Below, one piece after another: positions 11,444-62,304 of a stretch of 64,000 bases of DNA; position 1 is the first letter of the stretch; every line of letters starts with the position of its first letter. The stretch spans positions 34,603 to 98,602 of the forward strand of contig JABHBK010000059.1 of the NCBI GenBank assembly GCA_018673915.1, given 5' to 3'. The translations under genes were made by a program, and so were the position numbers. Source of the stretch: Nitrospina sp. (lineage in GTDB: Bacteria > Nitrospinota > Nitrospinia > Nitrospinales > VA-1). A model generated the notes under the pieces. The model saw nothing but the letters and a program-made list of their open reading frames with translations, searched no databases and had not been told where the DNA came from.

Positions 11444-11445
11444 TT

Positions 11446-12678: not shown

Positions 12679-12750
12679 AGTCACCCTCTTTATATCAGCG
12701 AGGTTAGATAACTTTAATACCGGTAATAGAGATGGAGTATTTTCTCAGCC
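12317..12750 (-). repeat. Copy A of the duplicated REC module (coding part plus SD plus about 70 nt of leader)
   Basis: Aligns by eye with 12861-13297. A 39-nt identical run at 12500-12538 equals 13046-13084. Confidence 0.8.
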
Positions 12751-12828
12751 CATTTCAGCATTTCATTTGGCTTCACTAATCTCAGGCATTTCCATTTACT
12801 TTGGCCACCCGAGTTACATCAATCTTTG

Positions 12829-13224: not shown

Positions 13225-13297
13225 AATCACCCTCTTTAAATTCAGCAAGGTTAGACAATTTTAATACCTGCAATTGAAATAGAGCAATTTCAAAGCC
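12861..13297 (-). repeat. Copy B of the duplicated REC module
   Basis: See copy A. It is offset by 546 nt, and the leader similarity extends past the start codon. Confidence 0.8.
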
Positions 13298-13434
13298 AAA
13301 CGAAAAAAATTCCTAACTACTCTTTATTAAAGGCGTTACAAATTAGGTGGGAACAGGGGGATTTCAATTATCAACGAGGATCCGTTTATTCAGTGATCTA
13401 AAAAACGGTTTTCCGTTAAAATCCCGAACAAAAT

Positions 13435-32731: not shown

Positions 32732-33139
32732 CTATTGGGAGGTGCGAATATAATGAATCAATACCCAGATTTGCCAATCTGCCAGATCAGGATACGCTGG
32801 CATAGCGGTACCGGGGACACCATTCCTGATAACCCAGAACATCTGCCCGTCTGAAATAGTTTCCATCGTTGCAGAGCAAGTGAAGTTTCGCGCGGGAGGG
32901 TTGGCCTCCAGCCCCATATGCCCAACCCCATTTCCTTTTTCGCCGTGGCAATGCCTGCACTGAAGTGGAGCTGACTGCGTTTGATAAATCGATTCCCCTT
33001 TCGCAATCCGTTTGGCCGTAACAGGAAGAGGATTCACCAAACTCAAAAAATCACCTGGAGCCTTTAGGGTCTGCCGCTTTTGAGGACATTGTGCTTTCTC
33101 CGGTTCATGGTCGGCAAATGCCGGTGGCATCCATACCAC
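32732..33139 (-). CDS. Monoheme c-type cytochrome (subfamily 1); N-terminal signal peptide disrupted
   Basis: One CXXCH (CRHCH) with the distal GTAMP Met. It is paralogous to the 37508 and 38019 genes. The ORF begins mid-signal-peptide; see the finding at 33137-33194. Confidence 0.75.
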   Translation of the reverse strand: MVWMPPAFADHEPEKAQCPQKRQTLKAPGDFLSLVNPLPVTAKRIAKGESIYQTQSAPLQCRHCHGEKGNGVGHMGLEANPPARNFTCSATMETISDGQMFWVIRNGVPGTAMPAYPDLADWQIWVLIHYIRTSQ

Positions 33140-33290
33140 TGCTATAAAAAAAAAAGCCAGTTACCCCATATATATTCTTTATAATTTTTTTCAAATTTAA
33201 TTCAAAAGTTACGCGTGATGAGAATTGAGAATAAAGAATTCCCTTTTCAGGGATTGTACTTCACCAGGACAAACAATAAATATAAACTTT

Positions 33291-35726
33291 TCACATCTGG
33301 CTGGCTGGAAATGTCAGGGAGAACGTAGTTCCTTTTCCTTCCCGGGAAGAGACATCAATCGTCCCGCCATATTTCGATACCAGTTGATGGACAATGTTCA
33401 GTCCCAAGCCAGTTCCCTTACCCTGCTCTTTAGTAGTAAAAAAAGGATCATAAATTTTCGACAAATATTCTTTTGGAATTCCCGGCCCCGTATCCCTGAT
33501 TGTCGCATGAACATTCCCATTTTCGCCCCCGGTTGAAATTAGCAACTCTCCCTTGCCTTCCATCGCTTGCACTGCATTAGTCAGCAAGTTGGTAAAAATC
33601 TGCTGAATCTCTTCAGGTTTTGCCTTGATCAGAGGAAGCTCAGAAAACTTTTTATCCAATTTGATATCATTATTATAAGAAGTAAGAATTGCAATATCAA
33701 TGGCCGCATCGATCCGCTCATTGAGATTTACTTCCTTTTCTTCCGTCGACATTGCCGACCGCATATAACCCGACATATTGAGAATAATCGATGCCATGTG
33801 CCGGGAGCGGTCAAAAACTTTATTCGCATATTTATGAATTTTTGCTGAATCTTTTTCGTCAAGAATGGCTTCAGTAAATCCCATTATCGAAACCAGAGGA
33901 TTGTTTAATTCATGGGCAATTCCAGCAGTAAGCGTGCCCAAACCAGAAAGCTTTTCTGCCATAGCCAGTTGGTCATGCAATTCCACATCCTCTGTGACAT
34001 CCCTTAAAAGGAGCCCCAACCGCTTGCCACTGTCGTCATGAATGACAATATCAAAAATCTGAAAGGCAAAAATCTTTCCATCCAGCTTGACGGTTTGCTT
34101 CATGCTTTGCAGGGAGGGAGATTCTTTAGGGGCAAGAGGATCTTGGGCGGTATAACATTGTATGGTCTGGTTCCCCAGGTTTCGGGAACCAATGGGAACT
34201 ACTTCACTATAAAAATTCAGAAGCGCATCCTGCACCTCTTGCCAAGTGGATGCAGATTCAGGACCCAAGTCTATTAAAGTATGCCCAAGAAGTTGGTCGG
34301 CAGTTTGCTGGGCAACCCTTTCAAACTCCGCATTCATATATTCTATTTTTAGATTGGGATCAAAAATAACCACTGCATCGGGGACGCTTTTTAGAATGCT
34401 GTCAGTGTATTCCTTAAGATATTGAACCTCCTCAGTTTTTTCAAGCACCTGGTGTTCTAATCCTGAAAAAGATTTTTGTAGCAAATCATTCATTTGATTT
34501 ACTTCATTGGCGAGTGCCTCAAGCTCGTCACCAGTTTTAATTTCCAGCGCATCTACTTTTTCGCCTTTACCAATACGTTCTGCGGCTTTCTGAAGTTTGC
34601 GAATCGGTTGGACAATTTTCTTCGCCGCCAGAGAACCCATACCCCCAATCAACAGAATGGAAACCCCCCCTGCCATTGAGATCCATAAAAAAAGTTTTTG
34701 CATGGGGGCAAATAGCTCATCCGAAGCCTGCCACGCAAAGGTATACCAGGTTTTCCCTTCGGACTTGACAATCCACTCTCGTGTTTGCTTTAAAGGTGAA
34801 AACCCAATAATAGAAAGCTCTTCGCCACCATGGCCGTCACCCATGGTCTTGACCCAATCTGGGTTTCGCCCTGTAACACTCTTTACCAGAACCGGGTCCG
34901 GCAACATAAATCCCGTTGGCAATATAGGGCAGTCGAGTACCATTCCTCCCGAATCGATCAACATGACATGGCCTGTCTCGCCAAAAGTAATTGGTTCCAG
35001 ATAACCGGAAAAAAATTCCTTCACGTCAAATATATGGTGGAGAACCCCGATGGTCTTTTCTTTTTCATTCAGAATTGGGAAGGCAAAGGTCGTCAAAAAA
35101 GATTCGGTCTTTTTGTTATGGTTGGCTGGTCCTATATAAACAAAATCTTTACCGCTGGAAATGGTTTTTTCCCAATCGGGTTTTCCAACATGAACAAACT
35201 CAGGAAAGTCATTAACGCTGGCCCTGAGAACCCCGAACGCGTCGGTGATATACAAGGCCTGAGTCGCGAGGGAAGAGAGGGTTTTTCTTTTTAGGAAACT
35301 TTGAAGCACTGCGCTGGCTTCTTCTTCCAGAAGGGACCGGGAAGAACCTGTGGCTTGCTCCTGAATATTTTTTTCCCGCGTTACCGGGTCAAGCGAAAGA
35401 AGACCTTGATTGAAGCTCTCGACAGTAGACCTGATGACCGGGTGCGCCGCATGGCGGATATTGCTGGAGATTTCACCCTCAATCAACAAGTCTATCTTGG
35501 TGGAGGTTTCATGCGCCAAGGCCTTGAAGCTGGTTCCAATCACTCCCTGCAAAGATTTTGTTCCTTGCAAATAGGAAAGGATCATCGCCAGCATCAAGGG
35601 CAAGGCCCCAACCCCAAGCATGGTCCAGATCAGTTTATTTTTTAATCCGGTCCTTATGCCCTTTCGTGTTTCATTTTCCTCGGAGCTTCCTCTGTGAATA
35701 GAGGAACCACCATGAGCGGTATCCAT
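33291..35726 (-). CDS. Sensor histidine kinase (periplasmic Cache-like domain, HAMP, PAS, HisKA, HATPase)
   Basis: 811 aa. Two TM segments flank a sensor domain of about 300 aa. A HAMP-like linker and a PAS region follow. The H-box is AHELNNPLVSI, and HATPase shows DTGPGIP and GTGLGLNIV. Confidence 0.85.
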   Translation of the reverse strand: MDTAHGGSSIHRGSSEENETRKGIRTGLKNKLIWTMLGVGALPLMLAMILSYLQGTKSLQGVIGTSFKALAHETSTKIDLLIEGEISSNIRHAAHPVIRSTVESFNQGLLSLDPVTREKNIQEQATGSSRSLLEEEASAVLQSFLKRKTLSSLATQALYITDAFGVLRASVNDFPEFVHVGKPDWEKTISSGKDFVYIGPANHNKKTESFLTTFAFPILNEKEKTIGVLHHIFDVKEFFSGYLEPITFGETGHVMLIDSGGMVLDCPILPTGFMLPDPVLVKSVTGRNPDWVKTMGDGHGGEELSIIGFSPLKQTREWIVKSEGKTWYTFAWQASDELFAPMQKLFLWISMAGGVSILLIGGMGSLAAKKIVQPIRKLQKAAERIGKGEKVDALEIKTGDELEALANEVNQMNDLLQKSFSGLEHQVLEKTEEVQYLKEYTDSILKSVPDAVVIFDPNLKIEYMNAEFERVAQQTADQLLGHTLIDLGPESASTWQEVQDALLNFYSEVVPIGSRNLGNQTIQCYTAQDPLAPKESPSLQSMKQTVKLDGKIFAFQIFDIVIHDDSGKRLGLLLRDVTEDVELHDQLAMAEKLSGLGTLTAGIAHELNNPLVSIMGFTEAILDEKDSAKIHKYANKVFDRSRHMASIILNMSGYMRSAMSTEEKEVNLNERIDAAIDIAILTSYNNDIKLDKKFSELPLIKAKPEEIQQIFTNLLTNAVQAMEGKGELLISTGGENGNVHATIRDTGPGIPKEYLSKIYDPFFTTKEQGKGTGLGLNIVHQLVSKYGGTIDVSSREGKGTTFSLTFPASQM

Positions 35727-35756
35727 TGAATGGACTCCTTTTTATGGATACGCAAC

Positions 35757-36179
35757 TCATACATAATTAAAATCTTGTGGAGCCGCAAGCACTTCGGCAA
35801 CTTTCTCTAACAGCTTCGCCTTCTCAATGGGCTTGACCATATAATCCTTCACACCCTTCTTTAATAAAGAAACTGCCAAGTCTGAATCCGGATAACCCGT
35901 GACCACTATAATTGGAATGGAGGGAGCGTTTTTCTTTAAAAAATCAATCGCCTCGATGCCATTGACCTTTGGCATTCTGATATCACAAATAATCATTCCT
36001 ACTTGAAGCAGGTTGGAACCCGACTTCATCATGTTGACTCCTTCTTCACCATCGGTGGCTTCAATCACATTGTAATTGGCAGATTCCAAATGAAGCCTTA
36101 ATACTTCTCTCACCTCTGATTCGTCATCAATGATCAGAATTTTTCCTTTGGTGCTGGATGCGTTATCTATAAGGGACAT
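35757..36179 (-). CDS. Stand-alone CheY-like response regulator
   Basis: 140 aa with ILIIDDE...ICDIRMPKVNG...VTGY..KP. AGGAGG SD lies upstream. Confidence 0.85.
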   Translation of the reverse strand: MSLIDNASSTKGKILIIDDESEVREVLRLHLESANYNVIEATDGEEGVNMMKSGSNLLQVGMIICDIRMPKVNGIEAIDFLKKNAPSIPIIVVTGYPDSDLAVSLLKKGVKDYMVKPIEKAKLLEKVAEVLAAPQDFNYV

Positions 36180-36430
36180 GACAACCTCCTACTCAGGAAT
36201 TAGAAACAAGGTCCACTGCTTGGAAAAAACTAGCAAACTTAATTTTTCACAAAAAGTGAACTTGACTACTAACTTTAGGGAATATAATTCCTAAAAATGG
36301 ATCCCGCCATAGTTTGCAAATTAAAAATTTTAATTAAAAAATTTTTAGGAACAAAGTTCGGAGTGGAAAGCCTGACTTAAGGCCTTGTATTTAAAGAAAG
36401 AAGATTTTCGGATTGGAGCCAGCGGGAATA

Positions 36431-36460
36431 GGCTTTGTGCCCTGGACAGGGCGCAAAGCC
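36431..36460 (-). terminator. Hairpin immediately 3' of the triheme cytochrome gene
   Basis: 13-bp stem GGCTTTGTGCCCT / AGGGCGCAAAGCC (one G-U pair) with a 4-nt loop, 9 nt after the stop. No clean U-tract follows. Confidence 0.4.
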
Positions 36461-36468
36461 TTAGTCCC

Positions 36469-37470
36469 TTATTGGCCTTTAAAGGTAGATCGGACATAAG
36501 CAATGACATCGGCAAGGCTTTGCTCAGGCAAAGTCAAACCCCAGTCCGGCATATTGGGAGATTTGCCAACACTCTTTCCGCCATAAAAAATCAGGTTATA
36601 TAAATAATCCTCAGGGTAGTCGGATAGCGGTAAATCCGCATGCACTGCTGGTTTCGGGTCGAGACCTTTAGCTCCAGGTCCATCGCCCTTACCCTTAGGC
36701 CCATGACATTGCACACAATATTCTTTATAGACCTGGGCTCCGCGTTTTGCATCTGCATTTTTGAATGCCTTTGAATTCCACGGTTCATGGAATTTAAAAT
36801 CCTTCACACCTAGAGTCATGAGATATCCAATAATATGGCGCGCCTTACGAAGGCTAATGTCAGCAAGGTATTCTCCGCTATGTGGGGTAAAGTCTTGCGG
36901 GTTTTCTGCAAACCGACTCCACCAATCCAAGGTATAGCGATTGCCCGCATCAAAGAGATCGACGCTGATCGGTCCGCCCATTTTATTCCCCTCGTCATCT
37001 TTAAGCTGATGACAACCTAAGCAGGAATATTCCCGAAAAATATCGGCTCCCAAGCTGGCTTCCATTTCTGTAAAAGTTGACATGTCGACAAAGCTTTTCT
37101 TTATTCGTGGGTCGCGGTAAGTTTTTTCCATATATTCAGCGAGCACTGTGGCTTCTTCGCGTGTCGAGATCATGTGTTTGGGGGAGAATCTGGATTTGTC
37201 CCAGCGGTAACTGTTGGGGTAGAGATTGTCCTCCTGCCCCATCAACCAGCGAATTAACCAGGGACGCTGGTATTTCACTCCACTCCACATTAAGTCGGGG
37301 GCTTTTAATTTAAATTTTGATTTTGGTTTGCCTTCAAAGCGATGACAGTTACTGCATTGACTGCCGATTATTTTTTCGGCGAACCCGTCATCGCCCGCCC
37401 ACAAGACAGATGGTGCTGAAAACATAACCAGTAACAAAACTGCGAAACTCCTGATCGATAATTTCCACAT
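36469..37470 (-). CDS. Triheme c-type cytochrome (secreted)
   Basis: 333 aa with the signal peptide ..APSVLWA. Three CXXCH motifs are present (CSNCH, CLGCH, CVQCH). Confidence 0.8.
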   Translation of the reverse strand: MWKLSIRSFAVLLLVMFSAPSVLWAGDDGFAEKIIGSQCSNCHRFEGKPKSKFKLKAPDLMWSGVKYQRPWLIRWLMGQEDNLYPNSYRWDKSRFSPKHMISTREEATVLAEYMEKTYRDPRIKKSFVDMSTFTEMEASLGADIFREYSCLGCHQLKDDEGNKMGGPISVDLFDAGNRYTLDWWSRFAENPQDFTPHSGEYLADISLRKARHIIGYLMTLGVKDFKFHEPWNSKAFKNADAKRGAQVYKEYCVQCHGPKGKGDGPGAKGLDPKPAVHADLPLSDYPEDYLYNLIFYGGKSVGKSPNMPDWGLTLPEQSLADVIAYVRSTFKGQ

Positions 37471-37507
37471 AACTTTTCTCCTGATTACATTTAAAAGTTA
37501 CTAAACT

Positions 37508-38017
37508 TCAGGCCCTAAGAAACCCCTTTATAAACCAAATCAGCTGCCAGATTTCCTCAGGTTTCAATGTCGATTTATGAGGCGGCATGTCGGTACCACG
37601 AGATCCGTTCTGAATAATCCAGAACAACTGACCGGCTGGCAGGTCTTTCATCACCTCTGCACAGGTAAAGTTTCGTGGCGGAGGATCCATCCTTCTTGCA
37701 AGACTGCCATTGCCATTTCCCTTTGCCCCATGGCAAAGTTTACATGCCGTCGGTTTAGCATCCTGATTAAAAAGTTTTTCTCCCTTGGTAATATTTTCAA
37801 GAGTGAGTGGAATTGGGTTCTTCTTGTTCAAATACCTGCTCGGGGCTTTTCTGGTTTTGCGGTTTTGTGGACAAATCCCCGAAACCCGTTGCATTTGAAA
37901 CGACCCTTCCAGACCTTTAATTTCTGAAAACCCAGGTAAAATATAATCCGCCAAGGCCTCTTTCACTCCGCTGACCGAAAACAATACAACGATCAGAACC
38001 AACGCCCGGATCATCAT
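37508..38017 (-). CDS. Monoheme c-type cytochrome (subfamily 1)
   Basis: I moved the start to ATG 38017 (MMIRALVLIVV..., a signal peptide), 1 nt after the upstream stop. It has CKLCH, GTDMP, and conserved extra cysteines (CPQNR, NFTC). Confidence 0.8.
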   Translation of the reverse strand: MMIRALVLIVVLFSVSGVKEALADYILPGFSEIKGLEGSFQMQRVSGICPQNRKTRKAPSRYLNKKNPIPLTLENITKGEKLFNQDAKPTACKLCHGAKGNGNGSLARRMDPPPRNFTCAEVMKDLPAGQLFWIIQNGSRGTDMPPHKSTLKPEEIWQLIWFIKGFLRA

Positions 38018-38018
38018 T

Positions 38019-38564
38019 TCACCTGCGCCGAGGTTGAGAGAGCTTGCGCAAATAATGAACGATTTGCCAAATTTCACGGTCCTTGAGATTCTTAAAAGCA
38101 GGCATACCTGTTCCCGGCGAGCCATTGCGAATGATCCAGAACATCTGACCATCGGAAATTTCTTTCATCGTTTCCTTGCAGTTGAAGTTTCGAGGTGAAG
38201 GATTCAGTCCCTGTGCCATGATACCCAACCCGTTCCCATTCACTCCGTGACAAATTTTGCAGGCAACCGGTTGTACATCCACCTGAAATAAGGTTTCCCC
38301 GGAGTAAAGAGTTTCCTGACTCGCCTCCAAAGGGTTGGCCTGATTACCGATTGCATCAGGAGCCTGAACGGTGGTCCGCAACTGCGGACAAAACCCATCT
38401 CCCGCAAAACCCTGCCCATGATGTCCCTGATGGCTTCGCAAATGATGCCGACGTCCATGCCCTAAAGGCGGCCCGGCCCAGACCTCGGCAATCAACCCGA
38501 ACAACAACATTCCCAAGACCAACCCCACTATAGACTTTCGATTCCTGCATATACCCTGATTCAT
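38019..38564 (-). CDS. Monoheme c-type cytochrome (subfamily 1) with His-rich N-terminal segment
   Basis: 181 aa with a signal peptide, then GPPLGHGRRHHLRSHQGHHGQG. It has CKICH, GTGMP, and extra cysteines CPQLR and NFNC. Confidence 0.8.
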   Translation of the reverse strand: MNQGICRNRKSIVGLVLGMLLFGLIAEVWAGPPLGHGRRHHLRSHQGHHGQGFAGDGFCPQLRTTVQAPDAIGNQANPLEASQETLYSGETLFQVDVQPVACKICHGVNGNGLGIMAQGLNPSPRNFNCKETMKEISDGQMFWIIRNGSPGTGMPAFKNLKDREIWQIVHYLRKLSQPRRR

Positions 38565-38594
38565 AAATTTGTTACCTATGAAAATTTATCCCTA

Positions 38595-39029
38595 TTAATC
38601 GGCTTGAGAAAAAGTACGGATGAAGTGGATCACGTTCCAACCTTCTTCCTCGCTGATAACTTTTCCTACCCGGACCGGCATCTGCGTTCCAGGGCTTCCG
38701 TTTCTCAACACCCACATCATCTCCCCATCGGTGCGAATATCCTGCCATTTTGGATCGGTGAAATCTCTCGGCGTATGGCCAGGAAGTTCAACTCCTTTTC
38801 CGTCATGGCTATGGCAGGTAACACACAAACCTTTACCAAAATATATTTCTCGCCCGGCCTCAATCCTTTCCGGGCTCGGAGGATAGGGGTTATCCATATC
38901 CTGAAGATATTCCAAAAGCTTTGGAGGAACCCTCGGCTCATAGATATCCAGGTGAAACGCACCTGCTAAGCTCCCCCATGCAAGTAGAGAAACAAAGCTA
39001 GTTATTAGATTTAAATGGATCATTCGCAT
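38595..39029 (-). CDS. Monoheme c-type cytochrome (subfamily 2)
   Basis: 144 aa with a signal peptide, CVTCH, the PRDFTD motif and GTQMP. Confidence 0.8.
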   Translation of the reverse strand: MRMIHLNLITSFVSLLAWGSLAGAFHLDIYEPRVPPKLLEYLQDMDNPYPPSPERIEAGREIYFGKGLCVTCHSHDGKGVELPGHTPRDFTDPKWQDIRTDGEMMWVLRNGSPGTQMPVRVGKVISEEEGWNVIHFIRTFSQAD

Positions 39030-39094
39030 TGTTTAGATCCATTATTATCAAAATTTTCGAAGGGATGCCACCCCTACTGGCAACAAGGCTTTAT

Positions 39095-39538
39095 TCATTT
39101 ACCAAAGGATCGAACATATAAAATCACGTGCCAGGCTTCCTCCTCTGTTAAGACAAGAGGAATGAATGAGGCCATTGCTGTTCCCTCGCTACCATTTTTC
39201 AATATCCACAACAGTTCACCATCCTTCCGCACAGCTTGCCATGCCTTGTCGGTAAAATTTCGTGGGAGTTTCCCTACCAACCCCGGGACATCGATATACC
39301 CTCTACCATCCCTTCCATGACAAGTAACACAAAATGCCTTGCCGTGAAAAAGCACTTTGCCCTTTTCAATATTTTCTTGGGTCGAGGGAAATGGGTTGAC
39401 CCATGTTTTTGCTTCTTCAATTTGGTCAGAGGGCACACGAGGATTCAATACTTCCGAATCAGTAGCTTCAATCCATCCAGGCCAAAATCCCAGACACAGC
39501 GCAAAAAAGACCCATAGACTAATTTTATTCCCAATCAT
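39095..39538 (-). CDS. Monoheme c-type cytochrome (subfamily 2)
   Basis: 147 aa with a signal peptide, CVTCH, PRNFTD and GTAMA. It is paralogous to the 38595 gene. Confidence 0.8.
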   Translation of the reverse strand: MIGNKISLWVFFALCLGFWPGWIEATDSEVLNPRVPSDQIEEAKTWVNPFPSTQENIEKGKVLFHGKAFCVTCHGRDGRGYIDVPGLVGKLPRNFTDKAWQAVRKDGELLWILKNGSEGTAMASFIPLVLTEEEAWHVILYVRSFGK

Positions 39539-39608
39539 GTCTTTACTCTCATGATGTATTGTTAAACACAGGGAGAACGTATCAACGTCCTCCCTGTATC
39601 CTGATCGT

Positions 39609-40124
39609 TTATTTGGTTCGATAAACGTGACCCACAGAAGTCGGTATTGTCACAGTTCCATCTGGTACCACTTGATCTTTTCCCCAAAGATGAAAAATCA
39701 CACCATCTGTTTTACCGGCGGCTTCCGCAAGGGCTTTCACTTCCTTTGGATCTTCAATATCAAGAATTACCACTCGACCTGTATCAATCTCGACCTGATG
39801 ATCATGAAATGCCCGGTTCCACTGAATCAATGGCACATTTTTTCTAGCGAGATCCTTGGCAATAAAATATTCTACCGCCACCAGCTTGGCATCGGGTGCA
39901 GTAGTTTGAAAGAGGAGGCATTGTAGAATTTCTCCCCCCTGAATCCCTTTGCAGTAATGGTGGTAAGGTCCACCCACAGTGCCATCAGCCATCATATGAG
40001 GAGCCTGGACGTGGATATCATATCCATCAGCGGGTCCTGCGCTCATAGCCGGGTTTACCAGAAAACCTAAACCCGCCAGGCTTATGACACCCATCATCAA
40101 AATCGTTTTAATTGTATGTTTCAT
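39609..40124 (-). CDS. Secreted DUF1264 (OBAP-like) family protein
   Basis: 171 aa with a signal peptide. The pattern HHYC...LQCLLF..., AKLVAVEYFI, FHDHQVEI and GVIFHLW matches my recollection of the DUF1264 / oil-body-associated-protein family. Confidence 0.65.
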   Translation of the reverse strand: MKHTIKTILMMGVISLAGLGFLVNPAMSAGPADGYDIHVQAPHMMADGTVGGPYHHYCKGIQGGEILQCLLFQTTAPDAKLVAVEYFIAKDLARKNVPLIQWNRAFHDHQVEIDTGRVVILDIEDPKEVKALAEAAGKTDGVIFHLWGKDQVVPDGTVTIPTSVGHVYRTK

Positions 40125-40192
40125 TGTTACCTCCTAATTAAAAATAAATAGAATTAAAATTTGGTCCTACACATTTAACGTCCAAAACATAT

Positions 40193-40756
40193 TTAAAGTT
40201 TTTTCTGTTCCAGACGTGCTATCAGGTTAAAAATACCCATAGCTAATACAAACAAAGCCAAAATAAACCACCATGCAGACCAGCCTGTCATGGATGGCAA
40301 AGTTGCTTTTCCTATGTTTCCAATATTCAGAATATTTGCCTTTACCCAGGGATAAACTTCCGCATATAAACCCGCACCCACAATCATTCCAATAACTCCC
40401 GGTACCGCATGCCTGGAACCCTCACCTATTGCAGCTACAGCGGTGCCGGGGCAATAACCCAAAACAGCCATACCCGCGCCAAAAATCAGTCCACCTAAAG
40501 CATTTCCAAGGAGGGCCGTGGCCTTGATATGCAGATCGATGTCAAACCCCAAAGCTCGCATGCCATAAATACCAACACTACCCACCACTATCGCCGTCAA
40601 CATTATTTTGAGAACTGTAAAATCTTTGAGCAGGAATTGGCCAACAATCACGCTGAATCGGGTCACACCACCTTTTTGCAGTAAAAAGCCAAATAGAAAT
40701 CCAGTGACTCCCCCCATCAAAATGGTAGTCGGGTTTGCAAAAAAATTCTCAAACAT
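40193..40756 (-). CDS. YeeE/YedE-family sulfur-compound transporter, second half-protein
   Basis: I moved the start to ATG 40756, with SD GGGAGG 8 nt upstream and an ATGTTTGA overlap with the upstream stop. It is a polytopic protein with the GYCPG motif typical of Sulf_transp. Confidence 0.75.
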   Translation of the reverse strand: MFENFFANPTTILMGGVTGFLFGFLLQKGGVTRFSVIVGQFLLKDFTVLKIMLTAIVVGSVGIYGMRALGFDIDLHIKATALLGNALGGLIFGAGMAVLGYCPGTAVAAIGEGSRHAVPGVIGMIVGAGLYAEVYPWVKANILNIGNIGKATLPSMTGWSAWWFILALFVLAMGIFNLIARLEQKKL

Positions 40757-41309
40757 GATCTTTGCCTCCCTTGCCATATAGTAGCCAAGCGGTAACAATT
40801 CCCGAAGCGAACAAACAAAGAAAAAATATCCAGGACGAGACCGCTAACTGCAGGCCACCTGAAATCCCATGACCTGAGGTGCAACCTCCAGCCAGACGTG
40901 CTCCGAAAATCACAACGATCCCTGCCAAAAAAGCCCCAGCGAAACGAAGCCTCTTAGAAGAACCAAACCGCCATCTCCAAAGATCCGGAACTGCTTCCTG
41001 TATTCGAGAGGACGAAAGAAGCGATGCACAAAACGCACCGACAACGAGCATGACCACTAATGAAAATTGCCACTCGAGAATAGGATTGGGTTCTGCAACC
41101 GTTCCCAGATATTTCAAAAAATAGGGATTTGACTTCACATAGGTTTCAGATACCAACCCTTCAACAGCTCCGGCGGTCCGGACCATGGTTGTGGAAACCC
41201 CTAAAGCTTTATTCATCAAAGCAAAGGTAATCCAGGAAAGTATACCTATTCCTGTTCCCACTGCATAAGGGGACCACCGGGCTTTTTTAAATATTGAAAT
41301 CATTTTCAT
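40749..41309 (-). CDS. YeeE/YedE-family sulfur-compound transporter, first half-protein
   Basis: 186-aa polytopic protein with the GGCTSGHG motif typical of Sulf_transp. Confidence 0.75.
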   Translation of the reverse strand: MKMISIFKKARWSPYAVGTGIGILSWITFALMNKALGVSTTMVRTAGAVEGLVSETYVKSNPYFLKYLGTVAEPNPILEWQFSLVVMLVVGAFCASLLSSSRIQEAVPDLWRWRFGSSKRLRFAGAFLAGIVVIFGARLAGGCTSGHGISGGLQLAVSSWIFFLCLFASGIVTAWLLYGKGGKDHV

Positions 41310-41332
41310 CTTTCCTTTTCAATGATCTCCGA

Positions 41333-41536
41333 TTACATCTGGTGATGTTTACAGGTATTGATGCCAAATAATGTGTAGGCTGGGCAATTCCCCATTAAAC
41401 CCGTCCCAAGTGGTACCAATCCGACAACACCTATGATTATTCCCTGGGACCCTGATGTTACGACCCCAACAATTACCAATACTACTCCCAAGGCTACTCT
41501 CAACAGTCGATCTGTTTTTCCAATATTACAATTCAT
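41333..41536 (-). CDS. DUF2892 (YgaP-like) small membrane protein
   Basis: 67 aa with the pattern NIGKTDRLLRVALG...PLGTGLMGNCPAY. GGGAGG SD lies upstream. Confidence 0.75.
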   Translation of the reverse strand: MNCNIGKTDRLLRVALGVVLVIVGVVTSGSQGIIIGVVGLVPLGTGLMGNCPAYTLFGINTCKHHQM

Positions 41537-41626
41537 TATTTTCTTGCCTCCCTGATAAAGTTTTTAATGTAGGCCTTCCGGTTGAGATCATCGAAAAGCC
41601 CTAATTGAGATGTTTCCAGATACCAG

Positions 41627-41827
41627 CTAAAGAAGTAAAAAGCCTGGTATCTGCGCATCCAGTTTTCTTTTCAACTCTCCGGATAATTTTCTAACCTTGC
41701 CAGGCCCTGGATTTAAACCCAACTCCTGGTCCTTAATATTTTTCCAGTAATTACGACTCAACTCCTGACTGGAAAGTGTTTTTTTTAGTTTCATCTTCGC
41801 ACTATAAATTCGAACTTCATGAAACAT
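41627..41827 (-). CDS. Small basic hypothetical protein (66 aa)
   Basis: A strong SD (AAGGAGGTGG) lies 3 nt before the ATG, directly after the REC gene stop. I recognise no family. Confidence 0.5.
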   Translation of the reverse strand: MFHEVRIYSAKMKLKKTLSSQELSRNYWKNIKDQELGLNPGPGKVRKLSGELKRKLDAQIPGFLLL

Positions 41828-41848
41828 AATCCACCTCCTTCAAATGAA

Positions 41849-42238
41849 TCAAAAGGCAAGTTGACTTCCCTTTTGTTTTTTACTCAGCTGACTTAGAATT
41901 TTCACAATCAACTCAAACTCCAGTGATTTATTAAAAACGAAACCTGCTCCCGCTATTTTCAATTGAACTTCAATATCCTCATAGGGTTGCTCCGTCAAAA
42001 TCATAAAGGAAGGTTTCATTGTTGAGGACCTCATTTTCTCCATGACATCCAAGGCTGTTCCGTCCAATAGGTACAAATCAAGCACCAACACATCCGGTTT
42101 TAGACTATTGATAGACTCGGTGATCTCTTTTACTTTGATCAACGTAATCATTGGGTCCACTCCGGGAATGCTCTCAATCAATCGATATAAACGGTCCAAA
42201 ACGCCCTTTGAATTATCCACCGCCAGCAAGACTTTCAT
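41849..42238 (-). CDS. Stand-alone receiver-domain protein
   Basis: I moved the start to ATG 42238 (SD AAGGAG with a 7-nt spacer). The REC pattern is VLLAVDN...VLVLDLYLLDG...ILTE...NKS. Confidence 0.7.
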   Translation of the reverse strand: MKVLLAVDNSKGVLDRLYRLIESIPGVDPMITLIKVKEITESINSLKPDVLVLDLYLLDGTALDVMEKMRSSTMKPSFMILTEQPYEDIEVQLKIAGAGFVFNKSLEFELIVKILSQLSKKQKGSQLAF

Positions 42239-42396
42239 TACTCGGCTCCTTAGTTTCATTCACTAGAATTAGTATGGGCGACAAACAGGAAATAAAATAT
42301 CGTTGTGCTTGGGGTTTTAGGGGTCAGTGAAAGAGGATTTAGCTTGTCGTAGATATTCGACAGGGGGGGGTTGCGAATTGAGTCAGTGTCAGGAAA

Positions 42397-43044
42397 TTAT
42401 TCTATGAGTTGGTTTTTCAGCGCGTAATGGATGAGCTCGGCGTTGGACTTCAGGTTCATCTTTTCCAATATTCGCGATCGGTGGGTACTTACTGTGGTAA
42501 CACCTACCGAAAGTTCCTCGGCAATATCTTTCAATGATTTACCGGACGCAATGGAACAAAAGACCTGAAACTCTCTAGGAGAAAGAGTTTCGTGTGGAGA
42601 CTTGTCAGAATCCTTCCCCAGTTCATCGACCAGCCGCTCGGCCATTTCAGGGCTGATAAATTTTCCTCCACTCGCAACTTTGCGGATCGCCTGAACAAGC
42701 TGGTCAGGTGCGCCAGCTTTGGTCAAATATGCCGAAGCTCCGGCTTTGAGAAATCTCATTCCATACATATCCTCGGAATGAATGCTCAAAATGATAATAG
42801 GAAGCTTTGGGTACAGACTTTTCAATTGCGGGAGGACTTCCCAGCCACTTTTTACAGGCATTTCAATATCCATGACGACCACATCAGGAGGGGAGGCTTT
42901 AACCTTTTCCAGTACCTCTTTGCCATTTTCCGCCTCATCAACGACAGAGAGATCAGGAGTCTTGGACAATATCTGTTTGATGCCCTGACGGACCACGGCA
43001 TGGTCATCCGCAACAAGGACTTTGATCATATCTGATTTAGTCAT
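42397..43044 (-). CDS. NarL/FixJ (LuxR-type HTH) response regulator
   Basis: 215 aa with REC (VLVADDH...VVMDIEMP) and a C-terminal LuxR HTH (LSPREFQVFCSIASGKSLKDIAEELSVGVTTVSTHRSRI). Confidence 0.9.
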   Translation of the reverse strand: MTKSDMIKVLVADDHAVVRQGIKQILSKTPDLSVVDEAENGKEVLEKVKASPPDVVVMDIEMPVKSGWEVLPQLKSLYPKLPIIILSIHSEDMYGMRFLKAGASAYLTKAGAPDQLVQAIRKVASGGKFISPEMAERLVDELGKDSDKSPHETLSPREFQVFCSIASGKSLKDIAEELSVGVTTVSTHRSRILEKMNLKSNAELIHYALKNQLIE

Positions 43045-44357
43045 GGTTCAAGTGGGATATTAACAACAACCTTTGTCCCCTCACCCGGTTTACTTAAAAA
43101 CTCAACGTCTCCATCTAAAAAAAGAATCCGCTCGCGAATTCCTATTAGTCCAAGAGATTGAGAATGATCGATTTTTTCTAGAGGCATGCCTTTACCATTA
43201 TCCTCAATTTCCATAGTCAAGCGGTTACCTTTCTGGAGAAAACCAACACGAACCCGATCTGCCTCAGCATGGCGAACAACATTGGTCAACGCTTCCTGAA
43301 AAATCCTGAACAAATCTGTAGTCAACTCCTTGTTCAATGGAATATGCTCACAATTAAGATCAAACTGAAGGTTTGTTCTTTTCTGATATTCCTTGGCCTG
43401 CCAGGCAATGGCCTCACACAATCCCATTACATCCAAAATCTGAGGCCGCAATTCTGAAGATATTCTTTGAACCGAGGTAATGGTTGAGTCAATCAAGCCG
43501 GACATGGACTGGACCCTCTCCGCCAGTTCAGCCCGTTGCTCGGGCAATTCATCTTTCAAACATACCAGATCCATTTTAAGAGCTGTTAAAGACTGGCCCA
43601 ATTCATCATGAACTTCGCGGGCGATCCGGGTTTTTTCTTCCTCACGGATGTTCTGCAAATGGTTACTCAGATTGCGCAATTGCTCCCGAATATTTTTTAA
43701 CTCGTTTTCCGCATTGGTCCTTTCCACCACCTCCTTCTGCAATGTGGTGTTGACCTGTTTTAAATCTATGTTCCTTTCGACCACCCGTTCTTCTAATTCG
43801 TTTCGGTATCTGGTCAATTCTTCTTCCACAAGACTATGTTCAATAGCATCAGCCACCAATCCCCCGATAGAAAGAAGAACCTCCTGGCTATGCTTGTACC
43901 AGGAAGGATTCGTGTTGGTGTACAAAAACATCACCCCGAGGAGTTTTTCCCTTGTTTTAAGAGGAACAATATAATGACCGTGAGCCTGCATGCCTTCATA
44001 CCTGCGTTCATGCCGGGCATCGCTGAAACAACTTTCACTCATCAGTAACTCACCCGACTCGGCAACCCTGCCGCAAAGGCAATCACCATAGGGAATCACC
44101 TGCTCATTTTCCAGAAACACGGAAGTGAACTCACCCAAAGTGCAATACAAGTTGAGAACTTTTTTATCAGGATCGGCAAGAAAAATGCCAGCCTTTCTTT
44201 CAACTTTCAATTCATCGAATCCGGTGAGAACCAACAGAACATTCTCCAACATGCTTTTCATTCCCTGGGAAGAATGGAGAACACGGGCAACTTCATGGAG
44301 CACTTCGTATTCCTGGGTCAGGAGCCGGGATTCAGATTCGGTCGGTTTGGATGACAT
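43041..44357 (-). CDS. Cytoplasmic GAF-domain sensor histidine kinase (HisKA_3 / NarL-partner class)
   Basis: 438 aa with no TM segment. The GAF region contains YGDCLCGRVA and SESCF. The H-box is REVHDELGQSLT, and a HATPase domain is present. A 4-nt overlap links it to the RR gene. Confidence 0.85.
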   Translation of the reverse strand: MSSKPTESESRLLTQEYEVLHEVARVLHSSQGMKSMLENVLLVLTGFDELKVERKAGIFLADPDKKVLNLYCTLGEFTSVFLENEQVIPYGDCLCGRVAESGELLMSESCFSDARHERRYEGMQAHGHYIVPLKTREKLLGVMFLYTNTNPSWYKHSQEVLLSIGGLVADAIEHSLVEEELTRYRNELEERVVERNIDLKQVNTTLQKEVVERTNAENELKNIREQLRNLSNHLQNIREEEKTRIAREVHDELGQSLTALKMDLVCLKDELPEQRAELAERVQSMSGLIDSTITSVQRISSELRPQILDVMGLCEAIAWQAKEYQKRTNLQFDLNCEHIPLNKELTTDLFRIFQEALTNVVRHAEADRVRVGFLQKGNRLTMEIEDNGKGMPLEKIDHSQSLGLIGIRERILFLDGDVEFLSKPGEGTKVVVNIPLEP

Positions 44358-44393
44358 AGGATTTAATATAAAAGGACGGGTTAAAAGCCATTA

Positions 44394-44927
44394 TTAGTTG
44401 CCGCCGGTCACCGGCCGAACCAGTCTTAAGAAAGCATCGGTGCCGGATATTTTATCCTGATAAGCCTGGCCGCCTTCGTCTTTATAAGAGACCGCTACTG
44501 CTTTATTACGTTTTTCTTCACTGGTCCAGGTACTCCAACCCGCGCCTTTTGGGAACATGCTGTCGATAAAGATTTTATCGCCGTCTTTATCCAGATTGCG
44601 TTTTCTTCGGTCATACAACGTAGCGGCTTCTTTGGGAGTGGGTAAACGCCAGTCCTGGTACCCAGCAAAATTTTTATTATTCATACGCTGGGCAAACTCG
44701 TTAGCGGTGTACCAGTTGACCCACTTAGCATTCACCTGCCAGTAGTCGTTGGTCATCCAAAGCAAACTCGTTTTTCTATCCAGAGTTGTACCGTCTGCAA
44801 AATTGGCAAAACGTTTATCGGCGGATTCGGCAATCGTTTTTTGATCCGCCCAAACACTTGTAGTAAAAAGCAGAGCCATAAAAATGATCCCCACCCTTGA
44901 AATACTTAGTGATGACATAACCTTCAC
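44394..44927 (-). CDS. Secreted DUF1566 (Lcl C-terminal / C-lectin-like fold) protein
   Basis: 177 aa with a signal peptide ..TSVWA. It has the motif GYQDWRLPTPKEAATLY. Confidence 0.6.
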   Translation of the reverse strand: MKVMSSLSISRVGIIFMALLFTTSVWADQKTIAESADKRFANFADGTTLDRKTSLLWMTNDYWQVNAKWVNWYTANEFAQRMNNKNFAGYQDWRLPTPKEAATLYDRRKRNLDKDGDKIFIDSMFPKGAGWSTWTSEEKRNKAVAVSYKDEGGQAYQDKISGTDAFLRLVRPVTGGN

Positions 44928-45074: not shown

Positions 45075-45710
45075 ATGAAAACTTATCGCGATCTTCAACG
45101 CATTATACTTTTAACGACGCTTTTCCTTTTAATTTCCTGCTGGTCTGTATTTGCCCATCCCAAAGATAAGGACCGTTGGGACAATAAATACAGTACCGAG
45201 GTTTATCTGTTTGGGGAAAAACCTATTCCATTTCTAGTGGAAAATGTTCGCCTGCTCCCGAAGGGCAAGGTTCTGGATATCGCTATGGGAGAAGGCAGGA
45301 ACGGAGTTTATCTCGCCACTCAAGGGTTCGATGTGACGGGCCTGGATATTTCCGCAAAAGGACTGGAAAAAGCTCATAAATTAGCGGAAAAAAATAACGT
45401 CACCATTGAGACAAAAGTGGTCGATCTTGAAAGTTTTCAACTGGAACCTAATACCTATGACGTAATCCTTTGCTCTTACTATATGCAAAGAGATCTTTTC
45501 AAACAGTTCCAGTCAGCACTGAAACCGGGTGGCATGATCGTGGTCGAAACCTATAATGTCGATTACCTGAAATATGCCCGGTTCAGCCGTAAGTGGGCCC
45601 TTGATACCAACGAACTGCTTGATATCTTTAAGGACATGCGAGTCATCCGTTATCAGGATTATGATGACGGCAAAGAAGCCTATTCCAGCATCATCGCGCA
45701 GAATCCCTGA
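45075..45710 (+). CDS. Class I SAM-dependent methyltransferase (TehB-like) with hydrophobic N-terminus
   Basis: 211 aa with the motif VLDIAMGEGRNGVYLA. The N-terminal 27 aa look like a signal peptide or membrane anchor. Confidence 0.7.
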   Translation: MKTYRDLQRIILLTTLFLLISCWSVFAHPKDKDRWDNKYSTEVYLFGEKPIPFLVENVRLLPKGKVLDIAMGEGRNGVYLATQGFDVTGLDISAKGLEKAHKLAEKNNVTIETKVVDLESFQLEPNTYDVILCSYYMQRDLFKQFQSALKPGGMIVVETYNVDYLKYARFSRKWALDTNELLDIFKDMRVIRYQDYDDGKEAYSSIIAQNP

Positions 45711-45721
45711 CCACTCATTTA

Positions 45722-46699
45722 GTGAATTCTGTCGAACGATTTTTTATTGCGCTGGCAAATCTATTTCCCATCTGGGTACTGACCGGAGCCGGGCTCGCCC
45801 TCTGGAAACCGGAAACCGCCACCTGGTTTCAACCTAATTGGATCCCTTATTTTCTCGGTCTCATCATGCTGAGTATGGGGCTGACCCTGAACTTAGAAAA
45901 TTTTTCCCGCGTCCTGAGGATGCCGAAATCCATCTTGCTTGGTGTTGGCCTGCAATACACCATCATGCCGGGGTTGGGCTATGCATTGGCACTGGCTTTC
46001 AACCTGCCCATCGACTTTGTTATCGGGCTCGTTCTGGTTGCCTGCTGTCCCGGCGGCACTGCCTCCAATGTAGTCTGCTTCATTGCCAAAACCCATGTCG
46101 CCCTTTCCGTCAGCCTGACCACCTGCTCAACATTGCTGGCTGTTCTTCTCACTCCGTTTCTAACTACATGGTGGGTGGAGTCCATATCTCTTGAATTAAC
46201 CGGACTGAAAGTGGATGTCGACACCCTGGGGCTTTTACTTAAAACCTTGAAGGTGGTCATCCTGCCCGTTTTGATTGGGATCTTTCTGAATCATTTTTTC
46301 CACCGCGCGGTAAAAAGAGTGGAGGCCTATACCCCTTTTATCGCTGTGTTGTCTATCGTATTCATCGTGGACTTTATCCTGGCGGCTAAAAAATCTGCCA
46401 TTCTGGAAATTGGGACTTCATTAATTTATGCGGTGATTTTGCTTCACTTGGCGGGGTTTATATTGGGATATGTTTTATCGCGCCTGCTGCATTTTTCCGA
46501 GGGAGATGCTCAAACAGTATCGATTGAGGTAGGGATGCAAAATTCCGGTCTGGCAACCGAACTGGCGAGGAGCAATTTCCCCGCTTACGGTTTGGCGACC
46601 GTACCGGGAGCTATATCCGCCCTCACCCATTGCATATTAGGCAGCATTGCCGCTGGCCTGTGCCGATGGCGCAATAAAGATAAGACAGAGCCTCGTTAA
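45722..46699 (+). CDS. Bile acid:Na+ symporter (BASS) family transporter
   Basis: 325-aa polytopic protein with CCPGGTASNV and VGMQNSGLA motifs. The start codon is GTG. Confidence 0.85.
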   Translation: MNSVERFFIALANLFPIWVLTGAGLALWKPETATWFQPNWIPYFLGLIMLSMGLTLNLENFSRVLRMPKSILLGVGLQYTIMPGLGYALALAFNLPIDFVIGLVLVACCPGGTASNVVCFIAKTHVALSVSLTTCSTLLAVLLTPFLTTWWVESISLELTGLKVDVDTLGLLLKTLKVVILPVLIGIFLNHFFHRAVKRVEAYTPFIAVLSIVFIVDFILAAKKSAILEIGTSLIYAVILLHLAGFILGYVLSRLLHFSEGDAQTVSIEVGMQNSGLATELARSNFPAYGLATVPGAISALTHCILGSIAAGLCRWRNKDKTEPR

Positions 46700-61335: not shown

Positions 61336-62304
61336 ATGGCTCATATCCATTTAAAAAATGAATGGGGGATTGCAGACAATCTGGCCACACCGGAGTCGGC
61401 ATACCTCCGCCGGCGAGAATTTCTAAAAGGAACAGCACTGACCACTGCAGCCACTATTGGGACTCTTTATGGTTGCGGACCCTCCGTTCCCCCGAAGGTT
61501 CTACCTGAAGTGGAATGGAGCGAACTGGATAAATCCATCTATCCCGCAAAAAGAAACACAGCTTATGAGTTGGACCGACCTCTGACTCCAGAAAATATCG
61601 CCTCAAGCTACAATAATTTTTATGAATTCGGATCCGATAAAACCGACCCGGTGCATTACGCGCAGAAACTCACTACCCGTCCCTGGGCCATTCAGGTAGG
61701 CGGTCTGGTCAACAAACCAAAAACTTTCGATACGGATGACTTGCTGAAAACCATGCCCATTGAGGAACGCGTATGCAGACTGCGTTGCGTGGAAGCCTGG
61801 GCCATGGCCGTACCCTGGACCGGGTTTCCGTTGAAAGAACTTCTCAAGCAAGTCGAACCAAAACCTACAGCCACCCATGTGAGGCTGGAAACTTTTTATA
61901 CACCCTTCACCGCCCAGGGCCAACTGGCCTTCTGGGAACCCTGGCCTTATGTGGAAGGATTAACCCTCAAAGAAGCCATGAATGAGCTAGCATTTTTAGC
62001 CACCGGAATTTATGGACATCCGCTATCCAAACAACATGGTGCCCCCATCCGTCTTGTTGTCCCCTGGAAATACGGATTCAAAAATATAAAGTCAATCGTG
62101 AAGATCGAACTGGTAGACTATCGTCCATCAACCTTCTGGAATACGCTTCAAGGACTGGAGTATGATTTTACCGCCAATGTGGACCCGCGGATTCCGCACC
62201 CACGCTGGCCCCAGACCCGCGAGAAGATGATCGGAACCGGGGACATCCGCCCGACTCTTCTCTATAACGGTTATGAAAAATTTGTTGGTAACTTATATTC
62301 ATGA
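61336..62304 (+). CDS. msrP: Periplasmic protein-methionine-sulfoxide reductase catalytic subunit MsrP (YedY, Mo-molybdopterin)
   Basis: 322 aa with the Tat signal RRREFLKG. It is collinear with E. coli YedY motifs (YNNFYEFG, RLRCVEAW.M.VPW.GFPL, PYVEGL, GAPIRLVVPWKYGFK.IKSIV, HPRW). Confidence 0.9.
   Translation: MAHIHLKNEWGIADNLATPESAYLRRREFLKGTALTTAATIGTLYGCGPSVPPKVLPEVEWSELDKSIYPAKRNTAYELDRPLTPENIASSYNNFYEFGSDKTDPVHYAQKLTTRPWAIQVGGLVNKPKTFDTDDLLKTMPIEERVCRLRCVEAWAMAVPWTGFPLKELLKQVEPKPTATHVRLETFYTPFTAQGQLAFWEPWPYVEGLTLKEAMNELAFLATGIYGHPLSKQHGAPIRLVVPWKYGFKNIKSIVKIELVDYRPSTFWNTLQGLEYDFTANVDPRIPHPRWPQTREKMIGTGDIRPTLLYNGYEKFVGNLYS

Follow-up and report, generated by a model that had tools for sequence, protein, structure and literature searches.

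A cluster of 17 genes on the minus strand of a 64,000-nt stretch of a Nitrospina sp. genome (contig JABHBK010000059.1, positions 34,603 to 98,602; hereafter the window, to which all coordinates refer) is real and uncharacterised. Its unit of interest is a gene pair encoding a DUF1264 protein and the monohaem cytochrome c cytB, together with the cytochromes downstream, of which four are monohaem (cytC to cytF) and one is trihaem. DUF1264 and cytB form an invariant core that a preliminary description of the window, made from the sequence alone, had not singled out, and the 12-kb run around them is a lineage-specific assembly built on an older module common to Nitrospinota and Nitrospirales. The location of the pair beside sulfur genes hints at an unrecognised sulfur-linked electron pathway. 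The reading favoured here, held at a probability of roughly 40%, is that of a regulated periplasmic module oxidising reduced sulfur species and delivering the electrons to cytochrome c.

Conservation was assessed using an alignment of 29 DUF1264 homologues searched on 185,579 species genomes, which gave 324 stretches with a relative. Counts of loci (prefix L) refer to the best 80 of these 324 stretches, and pair counts were taken from a BLAST map of the window proteins on the 80 loci. A greedy open reading frame (ORF) caller at times placed antisense ORFs ('unk237', 'c25') at DUF1264 or cytB and was not used for the pair counts. All of the best 80 loci belong to Nitrospinota or Nitrospirales, the nearest species-level genomes being Nitrospina and Nitrospinaceae metagenome-assembled genomes (MAGs). 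A cytB orthologue lies directly downstream of DUF1264 in approximately 76 of the 80 loci, with identities of 58–92% for DUF1264 and 65–86% for cytB. More distant DUF1264 look-ups mostly fell on contigs shorter than 2 kb, the informative two being L090 and the soil contig L089, in which the DUF1264-cytochrome pair is also present.

The preliminary description had made its proposal depend on the gene order being conserved in some related genome, and the order is kept in related Nitrospinaceae. The full 17-gene order is restricted to close members of this family (L005, L009, L038 and L064) and the YeeE/YedE and DUF2892 genes are variable, so the 12 kb could not be upheld as one module. Beyond these relatives, the trihaem cytochrome (50–57% identity) and, beside it, the 140-residue receiver encoded at 35757–36179 (45–55% identity) recur near the pair in Nitrospirales and other Nitrospinota. 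A second Nitrospinaceae locus type consists of the GAF kinase, the NarL-type regulator, DUF1264 and the cytochrome (L007, L010, L012 and L019). The more distant, Nitrospinaceae-like locus L090 contains DUF1566, a divergent DUF1264, a cytC orthologue (63%), a lipase-like gene, a CstB-like gene and three cytD-type cytochromes. Because DUF1566 directly precedes DUF1264 there, the DUF1566 protein may have belonged to the ancestral unit. Several MAGs carry both Nitrospinaceae locus types, indicating a duplication of the DUF1264-cytochrome pair in these organisms, and three DUF1264 copies lie within 20 kb in the Nitrospirales locus L036.

Sulfur genes beside the pair in relatives

Approximately half of the Nitrospirales loci share the order cupredoxin, 584-residue periplasmic protein, PAS-sigma-54 activator, CstB-like MBL-rhodanese-rhodanese protein, rhodanese-YgaP/DUF2892 protein, small zinc-ribbon protein, DUF1264, cytochrome, 135-residue protein, SorA, SorB, pyruvate kinase, CoADR-rhodanese, REC, fused cytochrome and kinase. 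The sigma-54 activator here heads a single-strand series running from the persulfide dioxygenase-rhodanese through rhodanese-YgaP and DUF1264 to the cytochrome. The CstB-like protein, a cytoplasmic persulfide dioxygenase-rhodanese-rhodanese, is encoded in 23 Nitrospirales loci as well as in L075, where its gene adjoins the trihaem cytochrome, and in L090. In 32 Nitrospirales loci a rhodanese fused to a YgaP/DUF2892 membrane domain is encoded shortly before DUF1264, either directly adjacent or with a 74-residue zinc-ribbon ORF between them. SorA (586 bits, cut-off 600) and SorB follow a few genes downstream of the pair in Nitrospirales, and CoADR-rhodanese is present in 17 loci. The pair is in this way associated with persulfide, thiosulfate and sulfite handling in several different arrangements. 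The sulfur link had been drawn in the preliminary description from YeeE/YedE and DUF2892. It is reinforced by the persulfide dioxygenase, rhodanese and SorAB neighbours in relatives, whereas its original basis lies in the genes that are least conserved.

Among the other neighbours in Nitrospirales, the sigma-54 activator is in all cases preceded by a type-1 blue copper protein and by the 584-residue secreted protein, for which neither Pfam nor NCBIfam has a family (L084:3465-5791 and 45 other loci), and secreted proteins of 135 and 182 residues with no assigned family recur beside the pair.

According to published genome analyses, nitrite-oxidising Nitrospinia possess a putative SorAB at most (PMC10839748, PMC8115632); N. 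marina reportedly possesses SorAB and lacks SQR (PMC8115632). The N. moscoviensis transcriptome paper treats other cytochrome clusters, and full-text searches returned no paper treating DUF1264 in nitrite oxidisers. The gene set could not be assigned to any described pathway, and none emerged from the literature searches, in agreement with the preliminary description. A Beggiatoa paper naming 'DUF1264' deals with the fusion of a cold-shock domain to a membrane protein and was discarded as irrelevant.

Genes of the block and their transcription

The minus-strand genes run without interruption from 44927 to 32732 and are bordered by plus-strand genes at both ends, in keeping with the single-strand block first described. 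The run holds 17 co-directional ORFs rather than the 20 genes originally counted, a figure at odds with the preliminary list itself, which sums to 17. All of the Pfam families named at that stage were recovered in the block. The features are as follows.

44394..44927, minus: secreted or periplasmic DUF1566 (Lcl_C) protein, first gene of the run (PF07603, 76 bits; signal peptide read from sequence)
43041..44357, minus: soluble GAF-HisKA_3-HATPase sensor kinase (Pfam)
42397..43044, minus: NarL/LuxR-type response regulator, REC and GerE (Pfam, 104 and 63 bits)
41849..42259, minus: atypical stand-alone receiver, 136 residues (REC 29.2 bits, under the 30.2 cut-off)
41627..41827, minus: 66-residue protein without a family (no Pfam or NCBIfam match)
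41333..41536, minus: DUF2892/YgaP-like_TM two-helix membrane protein (PF11127, 77.5 bits)
40749..41309, minus: split YeeE/YedE, C-terminal-half type, PmpA-like (PF04143, 67 bits, profile 170–309)
40193..40756, minus: split YeeE/YedE, N-terminal-half type, PmpB-like (PF04143, 67 bits, profile 7–152)
39609..40124, minus: periplasmic DUF1264 protein (PF06884, 51.7 bits; signal peptide read from sequence)
39095..39538, minus: cytB, monohaem cytochrome c, partner of DUF1264 (Pfam Cytochrom_C/CBB3)
38595..39029, minus: cytC, monohaem cytochrome c, paralogue of cytB (42% identity)
38019..38564, minus: cytD, monohaem cytochrome c of a second subfamily, 181 residues (extra Cys pair, His-rich N-terminus)
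37508..38017, minus: cytE, monohaem cytochrome c of the cytD subfamily (alignment; the called start at 38014–38017 yields a signal peptide)
36469..37470, minus: trihaem cytochrome c, 333 residues (CXXCH at residues 39, 150 and 252)
36424..36468, minus: strong RNA hairpin, probable transcript end or stabiliser (minimum free energy −28.4 kcal/mol)
35757..36179, minus: stand-alone receiver protein, 140 residues (REC 98 bits)
33291..35726, minus: membrane dCache-HAMP-PAS-HisKA-HATPase sensor kinase (Pfam)
32732..33139, minus: cytF, monohaem cytochrome c of the cytD subfamily, doubtful start (Pfam)
45075..46699, plus: weakly TehB-like methyltransferase and BASS/PanS-like transporter, divergent from the block (Pfam and NCBIfam)

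Intergenic gaps range from −8 to 151 nt, the single outlier being 289 nt between the trihaem cytochrome and the following REC gene. The gaps are mostly short, as first described; the statement that only one exceeds 150 nt is borderline, as the gap from the Cache/PAS kinase to the last cytochrome (32732–33139) measures 151 nt. All six cytochrome ORFs of the window fall within the block, with the sole other CXXCH of the 64 kb located in PriA, and the flanks consist of housekeeping genes (Tol-Pal, EF-P, an ABC-F protein, NeuB with polysaccharide genes, and PriA). No RNA genes were returned by Rfam and tRNA scans of the window. As the preliminary description had it, Sox, Dsr and Sor are absent from the block genes by Pfam/NCBIfam and tblastn. 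A tblastn search of the window using Nitrospira SorA matched solely a weak Mo-domain protein approximately 17 kb from the block (61336–62304, plus strand); the one domain recognised in this 322-residue protein is of the molybdopterin-oxidoreductase type (MsrP/YedY-like or a small member of the sulfite-oxidase family), and the gene is followed by a 111-residue ORF without a family that ends at 62636. The DUF1264 gene was found with an identical 20-kb neighbourhood elsewhere (GCA_018692775.1, an ENA assembly, Saanich Inlet metagenome; the locus is present unchanged in sample 3300022931), and the searched collection indexes the exact DUF1264 protein in 127 blocks. The host is accordingly a common marine bacterium of Nitrospina type.

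The match of the window DUF1264 protein to PF06884 is well above the cut-off of 25 bits and limited to profile positions 3–132 of 171; the protein represents a short, secreted bacterial subfamily. The family is small, with 627 clusters at E<1e-3 and 38 at E<1e-30 among 1.84 billion representatives. In a family-wide alignment of 50 sequences, His56, Cys69 and Glu112 are invariant and His55, Cys58, Glu85, His107 and His109 are kept in at least 90%; many His are invariant in the alignment of 29 homologues from the Nitrospinota/Nitrospirales clade. A sequence search of the PDB gave no match. An AlphaFold2 model built from 29 close sequences reached a predicted local distance difference test (pLDDT) score of 68 and had no fold match, and that built from 50 diverse sequences reached 91.7; Foldseek comparison of the latter with the PDB returned no match (best E-value 0.22, TM-scores <0.25). 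Given the residue pattern and the obligatory cytochrome partner, DUF1264 is probably a His/Cys/Glu metal-binding redox protein with a fold that has no solved match.

All six cytochromes pass the PF00034/PF13442 cut-offs, with CXXCH counts of 1, 1, 1, 1, 1 and 3, and a GTxM motif is conserved in their alignment. By motif and profile they are assigned to class I c-type cytochromes with predicted haem attachment. The six c-type cytochromes of the preliminary description were recovered, five monohaem and one with three CXXCH motifs; their common assignment to the periplasm holds for the five in which signal peptides were read from the sequence and is doubtful for the last (32732–33139). The monohaem proteins form two subfamilies, cytB with cytC, and cytD with cytE and cytF, the latter carrying an extra conserved Cys pair that in cytD lies in CPQxR...RNFxC; the trihaem protein has no Cys beyond its three CXXCH motifs. 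Cytochrome 579 (NF033864) is the best named NCBIfam family for all but the trihaem protein. Since cytB scores 97 bits and the others 48–74 bits against a cut-off of 280, the five are not members of that family. A homologue search with cytB returned close Nitrospina and Nitrospira relatives alone.

A 477-residue Nitrospira cytochrome aligns with the window trihaem protein over residues 18–341 (50–57% identity) and with the cytD/E/F type over residues 359–477 (54% identity to cytD, 38019–38564). This fusion is encoded at L084:18638-20071 and at equivalent positions in approximately 23 Nitrospirales loci, the two parts being separate genes in Nitrospina, and indicates that the cytD-type monohaem cytochromes of Nitrospina would function together with the trihaem protein. 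Just past its signal peptide cytD carries a His-rich stretch, GHGRRHHLRSHQGHHGQG (window 38400–38470, residues ~33–56), that is not found in its paralogues and could be a metal-binding tail. The cytF ORF has no canonical start that gives a signal peptide: upstream (33139–33180, minus strand) the sequence reads ATG GGG TAA, followed in frame by a hydrophobic, signal-peptide-like segment, LAFFFIAVVWMPPAFA, that includes a T10 homopolymer. Three independent assemblies agree on this layout at 100% identity. The ATG stands out of frame in L004, and the L038 orthologue encodes a normal signal peptide. The gene may be decaying, may use a non-canonical start or may depend on slippage for its expression.

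The window YeeE/YedE genes are assigned to the PmpAB-type split form by their profile coverage, as two adjacent half-profile genes with one Cys motif each (GGCTSGHG in 40749–41309 and GYCPG in 40193–40756). They score 34–42 bits against the TsuA/YeeE equivalogs (NF041049 and NF052577; cut-offs 645 and 400), with 42 bits for 40193–40756 against the cut-off of 400, and 31–33 bits against selenium-linked YedE models (TIGR04112 and NF033796; cut-offs 200–350), below the cut-off in each case. No TusA/TsuB/YeeD partner gene is encoded in the block, and no YedF, SelD or selenoprotein machinery in the window. In the literature, short YeeE proteins of the PmpAB type are described as transporters of sulfur or zero-valent sulfur (PMC11582611). 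The DUF2892 protein matches its profile over the full length (cut-off 25.3 bits) and has no rhodanese domain. Split YeeE genes are present in seven Nitrospinaceae loci and DUF2892 only in the window lineage and L009, making these genes accessory and the least conserved parts of the cluster. The 66-residue ORF is probably a real gene, as it is conserved at 61–83% identity in eight Nitrospinaceae loci (tblastn). Next to DUF1566, the divergent methyltransferase/transporter pair is found in L005, L008, L009, L038 and L090. An arsenic or chalcogen role of this pair was rejected, as the transporter resembles BASS/PanS proteins rather than carriers of arsenite or selenium, and the TehB score is 64 bits against a cut-off of 303.

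Of the three two-component systems of the preliminary description, two stand as kinase/regulator pairs, namely the GAF kinase with the REC-GerE protein and the REC protein (35757–36179) with the Cache/PAS kinase. The third is an atypical orphan receiver (41849–42259) with a sub-cut-off REC match, no partner kinase and no output domain, kept in Nitrospinaceae relatives only (59–75% identity). The NarL-type regulator gene overlaps the GAF kinase gene by 4 nt and is co-conserved with it beside DUF1264; GAF kinase orthologues (51–81% identity) precede DUF1264 in the 4-gene Nitrospinaceae locus type. The Cache/PAS kinase gene begins 30 nt past the REC gene. In the GAF domain, Cys93, Cys95, Cys110, His116, His126, His128 and His156 (CxC...C and four His) are invariant in 10 kinase orthologues, a pattern that suggests a site for sensing through a metal, Fe-S or thiols. 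Approximately 20 kb away, the minus strand carries a separate regulatory cluster (9968–14805) with genes for a PAS kinase, a hybrid REC-kinase, a small ORF with REC-like similarity (12829–13248) and a REC-sigma-54 activator, the last with 39% identity to the activator heading the Nitrospirales DUF1264 cluster.

The hairpin after the trihaem stop codon (36424–36468; z = −4.0, with 0 of 200 shuffles as stable) precedes the only long gap of the block, and in relatives hairpins occur between YeeE, or the 66-residue ORF, and DUF1264. These hairpins suggest more than one transcription unit. There are likely at least three: one with the regulators and perhaps the transporter genes, one from DUF1264 to the trihaem cytochrome, and one with REC, its kinase and perhaps cytF. 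Promoter, terminator and sigma-54 consensus scans over the block gave counts equal to the shuffled expectation, so no operon map was derived from them. An element, TTTTRGACGTTAAA, located ~55 nt upstream of the DUF1264 start (window 40125–40192) is common to L004, L008 and L009, is kept in L008 despite the absence of YeeE, and is a candidate promoter or regulator site.

Interpretation of the cluster

In the favoured reading, DUF1264 would oxidise periplasmic reduced inorganic sulfur, with sulfide or sulfane sulfur, or thiosulfate, as candidate substrates. Electrons would pass from DUF1264 to cytB, the other cytochromes, the cytochrome c pool and finally a terminal oxidase, entering at the level of cytochrome c as in nitrite oxidation. 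The PmpAB-type YeeE/YedE channel and, in some relatives, DUF2892 would have been inserted upstream and would move sulfur species across the inner membrane. Expression would be controlled by the Cys-rich cytoplasmic GAF kinase with the NarL-type regulator, and likewise by REC with the Cache/PAS kinase. Metal binding, catalysis, substrate, electron direction, transporter role and regulatory targets are all inferred. That DUF1264 is the catalytic subunit of an unrecognised class of periplasmic metalloenzyme with a fold unlike any solved structure, a reduced-sulfur:cytochrome c oxidoreductase replacing SQR, FCC or Tsd in Nitrospina and Nitrospira, is a doubtful proposition.

Several observations weigh against a sulfur-oxidising module. 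To our knowledge DUF1264 has no catalytic precedent, and the block lacks genes for a terminal oxidase, a quinone-linked enzyme or any known sulfur oxidoreductase. Approximately 20 Nitrospirales loci from small genomes, with the order cupredoxin, 584-residue protein, sigma-54 activator, DUF1264, cytochrome and trihaem cytochrome, are devoid of sulfur genes over a distance of 10 kb. Sulfur genes are also missing around the second Nitrospinaceae locus type, whose neighbours are ankyrin, MBOAT, ArsC and CBS genes. A Geobacteraceae DUF1264 homologue has no cytochrome partner and is found near a Cu-oxidase_2 gene and a weakly matching cation-efflux gene. Within Nitrospinaceae the YeeE halves and DUF2892 are both absent from L008 and L014, and YeeE is present with DUF2892 absent in L005, L011, L038 and L064. 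PmpAB genes elsewhere adjoin non-sulfur systems (PMC11582611). Finally, the Nitrospirales loci are not independent observations, because much of their synteny may simply be inherited.

Several of these points fit an accessory branch of respiration, in which the cytochromes would be high-potential carriers of a nitrite-oxidation or low-oxygen chain, DUF1264 a metallochaperone or redox partner, and the sulfur genes incidental. The unusually high identity of the pair across the best 80 loci of both lineages, cytochrome 579 as nearest named family, the lack in the block of a substrate-specific enzyme of known type, and the type-B Nitrospirales and type-2 Nitrospinaceae loci without sulfur genes are consistent with such a role, as are the cytoplasmic GAF/PAS sensors, types often used for O2, NO and redox sensing. 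Cytochrome 579 is a periplasmic carrier of the aerobic iron respiratory chain of Leptospirillum. However, NXR or a terminal oxidase adjoins the cluster in none of the 80 loci, dedicated regulators and variable copy number are unlike constitutive core respiration, and the occurrence of the pair in a soil contig and of a lone DUF1264 in a Geobacteraceae genome also argues against it. A respiratory branch would leave the repeated, differently arranged sulfur neighbours unexplained, and is considered possible at best. The 17 genes might alternatively represent several unrelated operons placed on one strand by coincidence, with the DUF1264-cytochrome pair alone meaningful. The modular content among close relatives, the strong hairpin and 289-nt gap after the trihaem gene, the hairpins upstream of DUF1264 in relatives, and consensus scans at chance level with no sign of co-transcription would agree with this. 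An assembly of unrelated operons is nevertheless judged improbable given that the pair is accompanied by the trihaem cytochrome and REC in both phyla, that an independent 4-gene locus likewise has the GAF kinase and its regulator immediately before DUF1264, that all six window cytochromes are concentrated in the block, and that DUF1566 and cytD-type cytochromes surround the divergent DUF1264 in L090.

A role in metal oxidation or homeostasis, in which DUF1264 would bind or oxidise Cu(I), Fe(II) or Mn(II) and pass electrons to the cytochromes, accords with the invariant His/Cys/Glu-rich core of the protein, the His-rich N-terminus of cytD and the cytochrome 579 resemblance, which points to iron oxidation in Leptospirillum. 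The blue copper protein upstream in 34 Nitrospirales loci, the second cupredoxin that follows the pair in some loci, and the Cu-oxidase-domain and weakly matching cation-efflux proteins near the Geobacteraceae homologue point the same way. On the other side, cupredoxins are ordinary electron carriers, the cytochrome 579 scores lie far under the family cut-off, and the block encodes no metal transporter, metal-sensing regulator or outer-membrane cytochrome. As the associations with sulfur genes are also more numerous and closer to the pair, a metal module is regarded as quite unlikely. The preliminary description had also raised chalcogen import, and uptake and detoxification of selenium or tellurium through YedE-like transport and a TehB-like methyltransferase has little to recommend it. 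The YeeE halves do match selenium-linked YedE models weakly, the divergent TehB-like methyltransferase is syntenic with the block, and SelO lies ~8 kb upstream in some Nitrospirales loci. Yet the scores fall far short (33 bits against 200 for YedE, 64 against 303 for TehB), the divergent transporter is BASS/PanS-like, the selenium genes sought in the window are missing, no part of the cluster is more dispensable than YeeE, and the SelO gene codes for a general AMPylase and is transcribed the other way. A chalcogen module is therefore very improbable.

Significance and relation to known systems

Nitrospina and marine Nitrospira make most oceanic nitrate and persist in oxygen-minimum zones with cryptic sulfide and thiosulfate cycling. 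If DUF1264 is an oxidoreductase as proposed, the ocean's main nitrite oxidisers would have a sulfur-driven electron input at the level of cytochrome c, and a DUF family without a solved fold would gain a function and a first biochemical handle. The pair is small, clonable and common to both phyla, and would allow a direct test of electron use from reduced sulfur. Even without a sulfur role, the pair would remain a component in need of explanation, common to the sampled Nitrospinota and Nitrospirales genomes.

The cluster in relatives resembles the SQR-PDO/cst clusters of sulfide detoxification, in that CstB-like, membrane rhodanese and CoADR-rhodanese genes share the strand of DUF1264 with a sigma-54 activator first; in the window a YeeE-family transporter occupies the equivalent position. 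Unlike those clusters, no SQR, CstA or CstR was recognised in the loci examined, in which not all unlabelled ORFs were annotated, and the window itself has no persulfide dioxygenase (PDO) or rhodanese. Because the periplasmic DUF1264-cytochrome pair sits among the sulfur genes, electrons would enter at cytochrome c and not at quinone. The DUF2892 protein of the window likewise lacks the rhodanese domain present in E. coli YgaP and in the Nitrospirales neighbours.

Of the YeeE/YedE family transporters, which also include TsuA(YeeE)-TsuB and SoxT, the transporter genes resemble PmpA/PmpB (PMC11582611), as adjacent half-size genes corresponding to the C- and N-terminal halves of PF04143 with one Cys motif each, and differ from them in length, the window proteins having 186–187 residues compared with ~130. 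The TsuA(YeeE)-TsuB system differs further: the window protein is split, no TusA/TsuB/YeeD is nearby, and the equivalog scores are far short. Like cytochrome 579 of Leptospirillum, the window cytochromes closest to it are monohaem and periplasmic, and that family comes from Nitrospirota; the context of the window host, in contrast, is neither iron oxidation nor acidophily. Compared with the periplasmic sulfur oxidoreductases SorAB (sulfite dehydrogenase), FccAB (flavocytochrome c sulfide dehydrogenase) and TsdAB (thiosulfate dehydrogenase), DUF1264 has no detectable sequence or fold similarity to solved structures, among which molybdenum, flavin and haem enzymes would be represented, and its activity is proposed here by inference. 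The pair nevertheless shares with these systems a secreted, putatively catalytic protein whose gene is immediately followed by that of a monohaem class I cytochrome, and in Nitrospirales a genuine SorAB is located a few genes from it.

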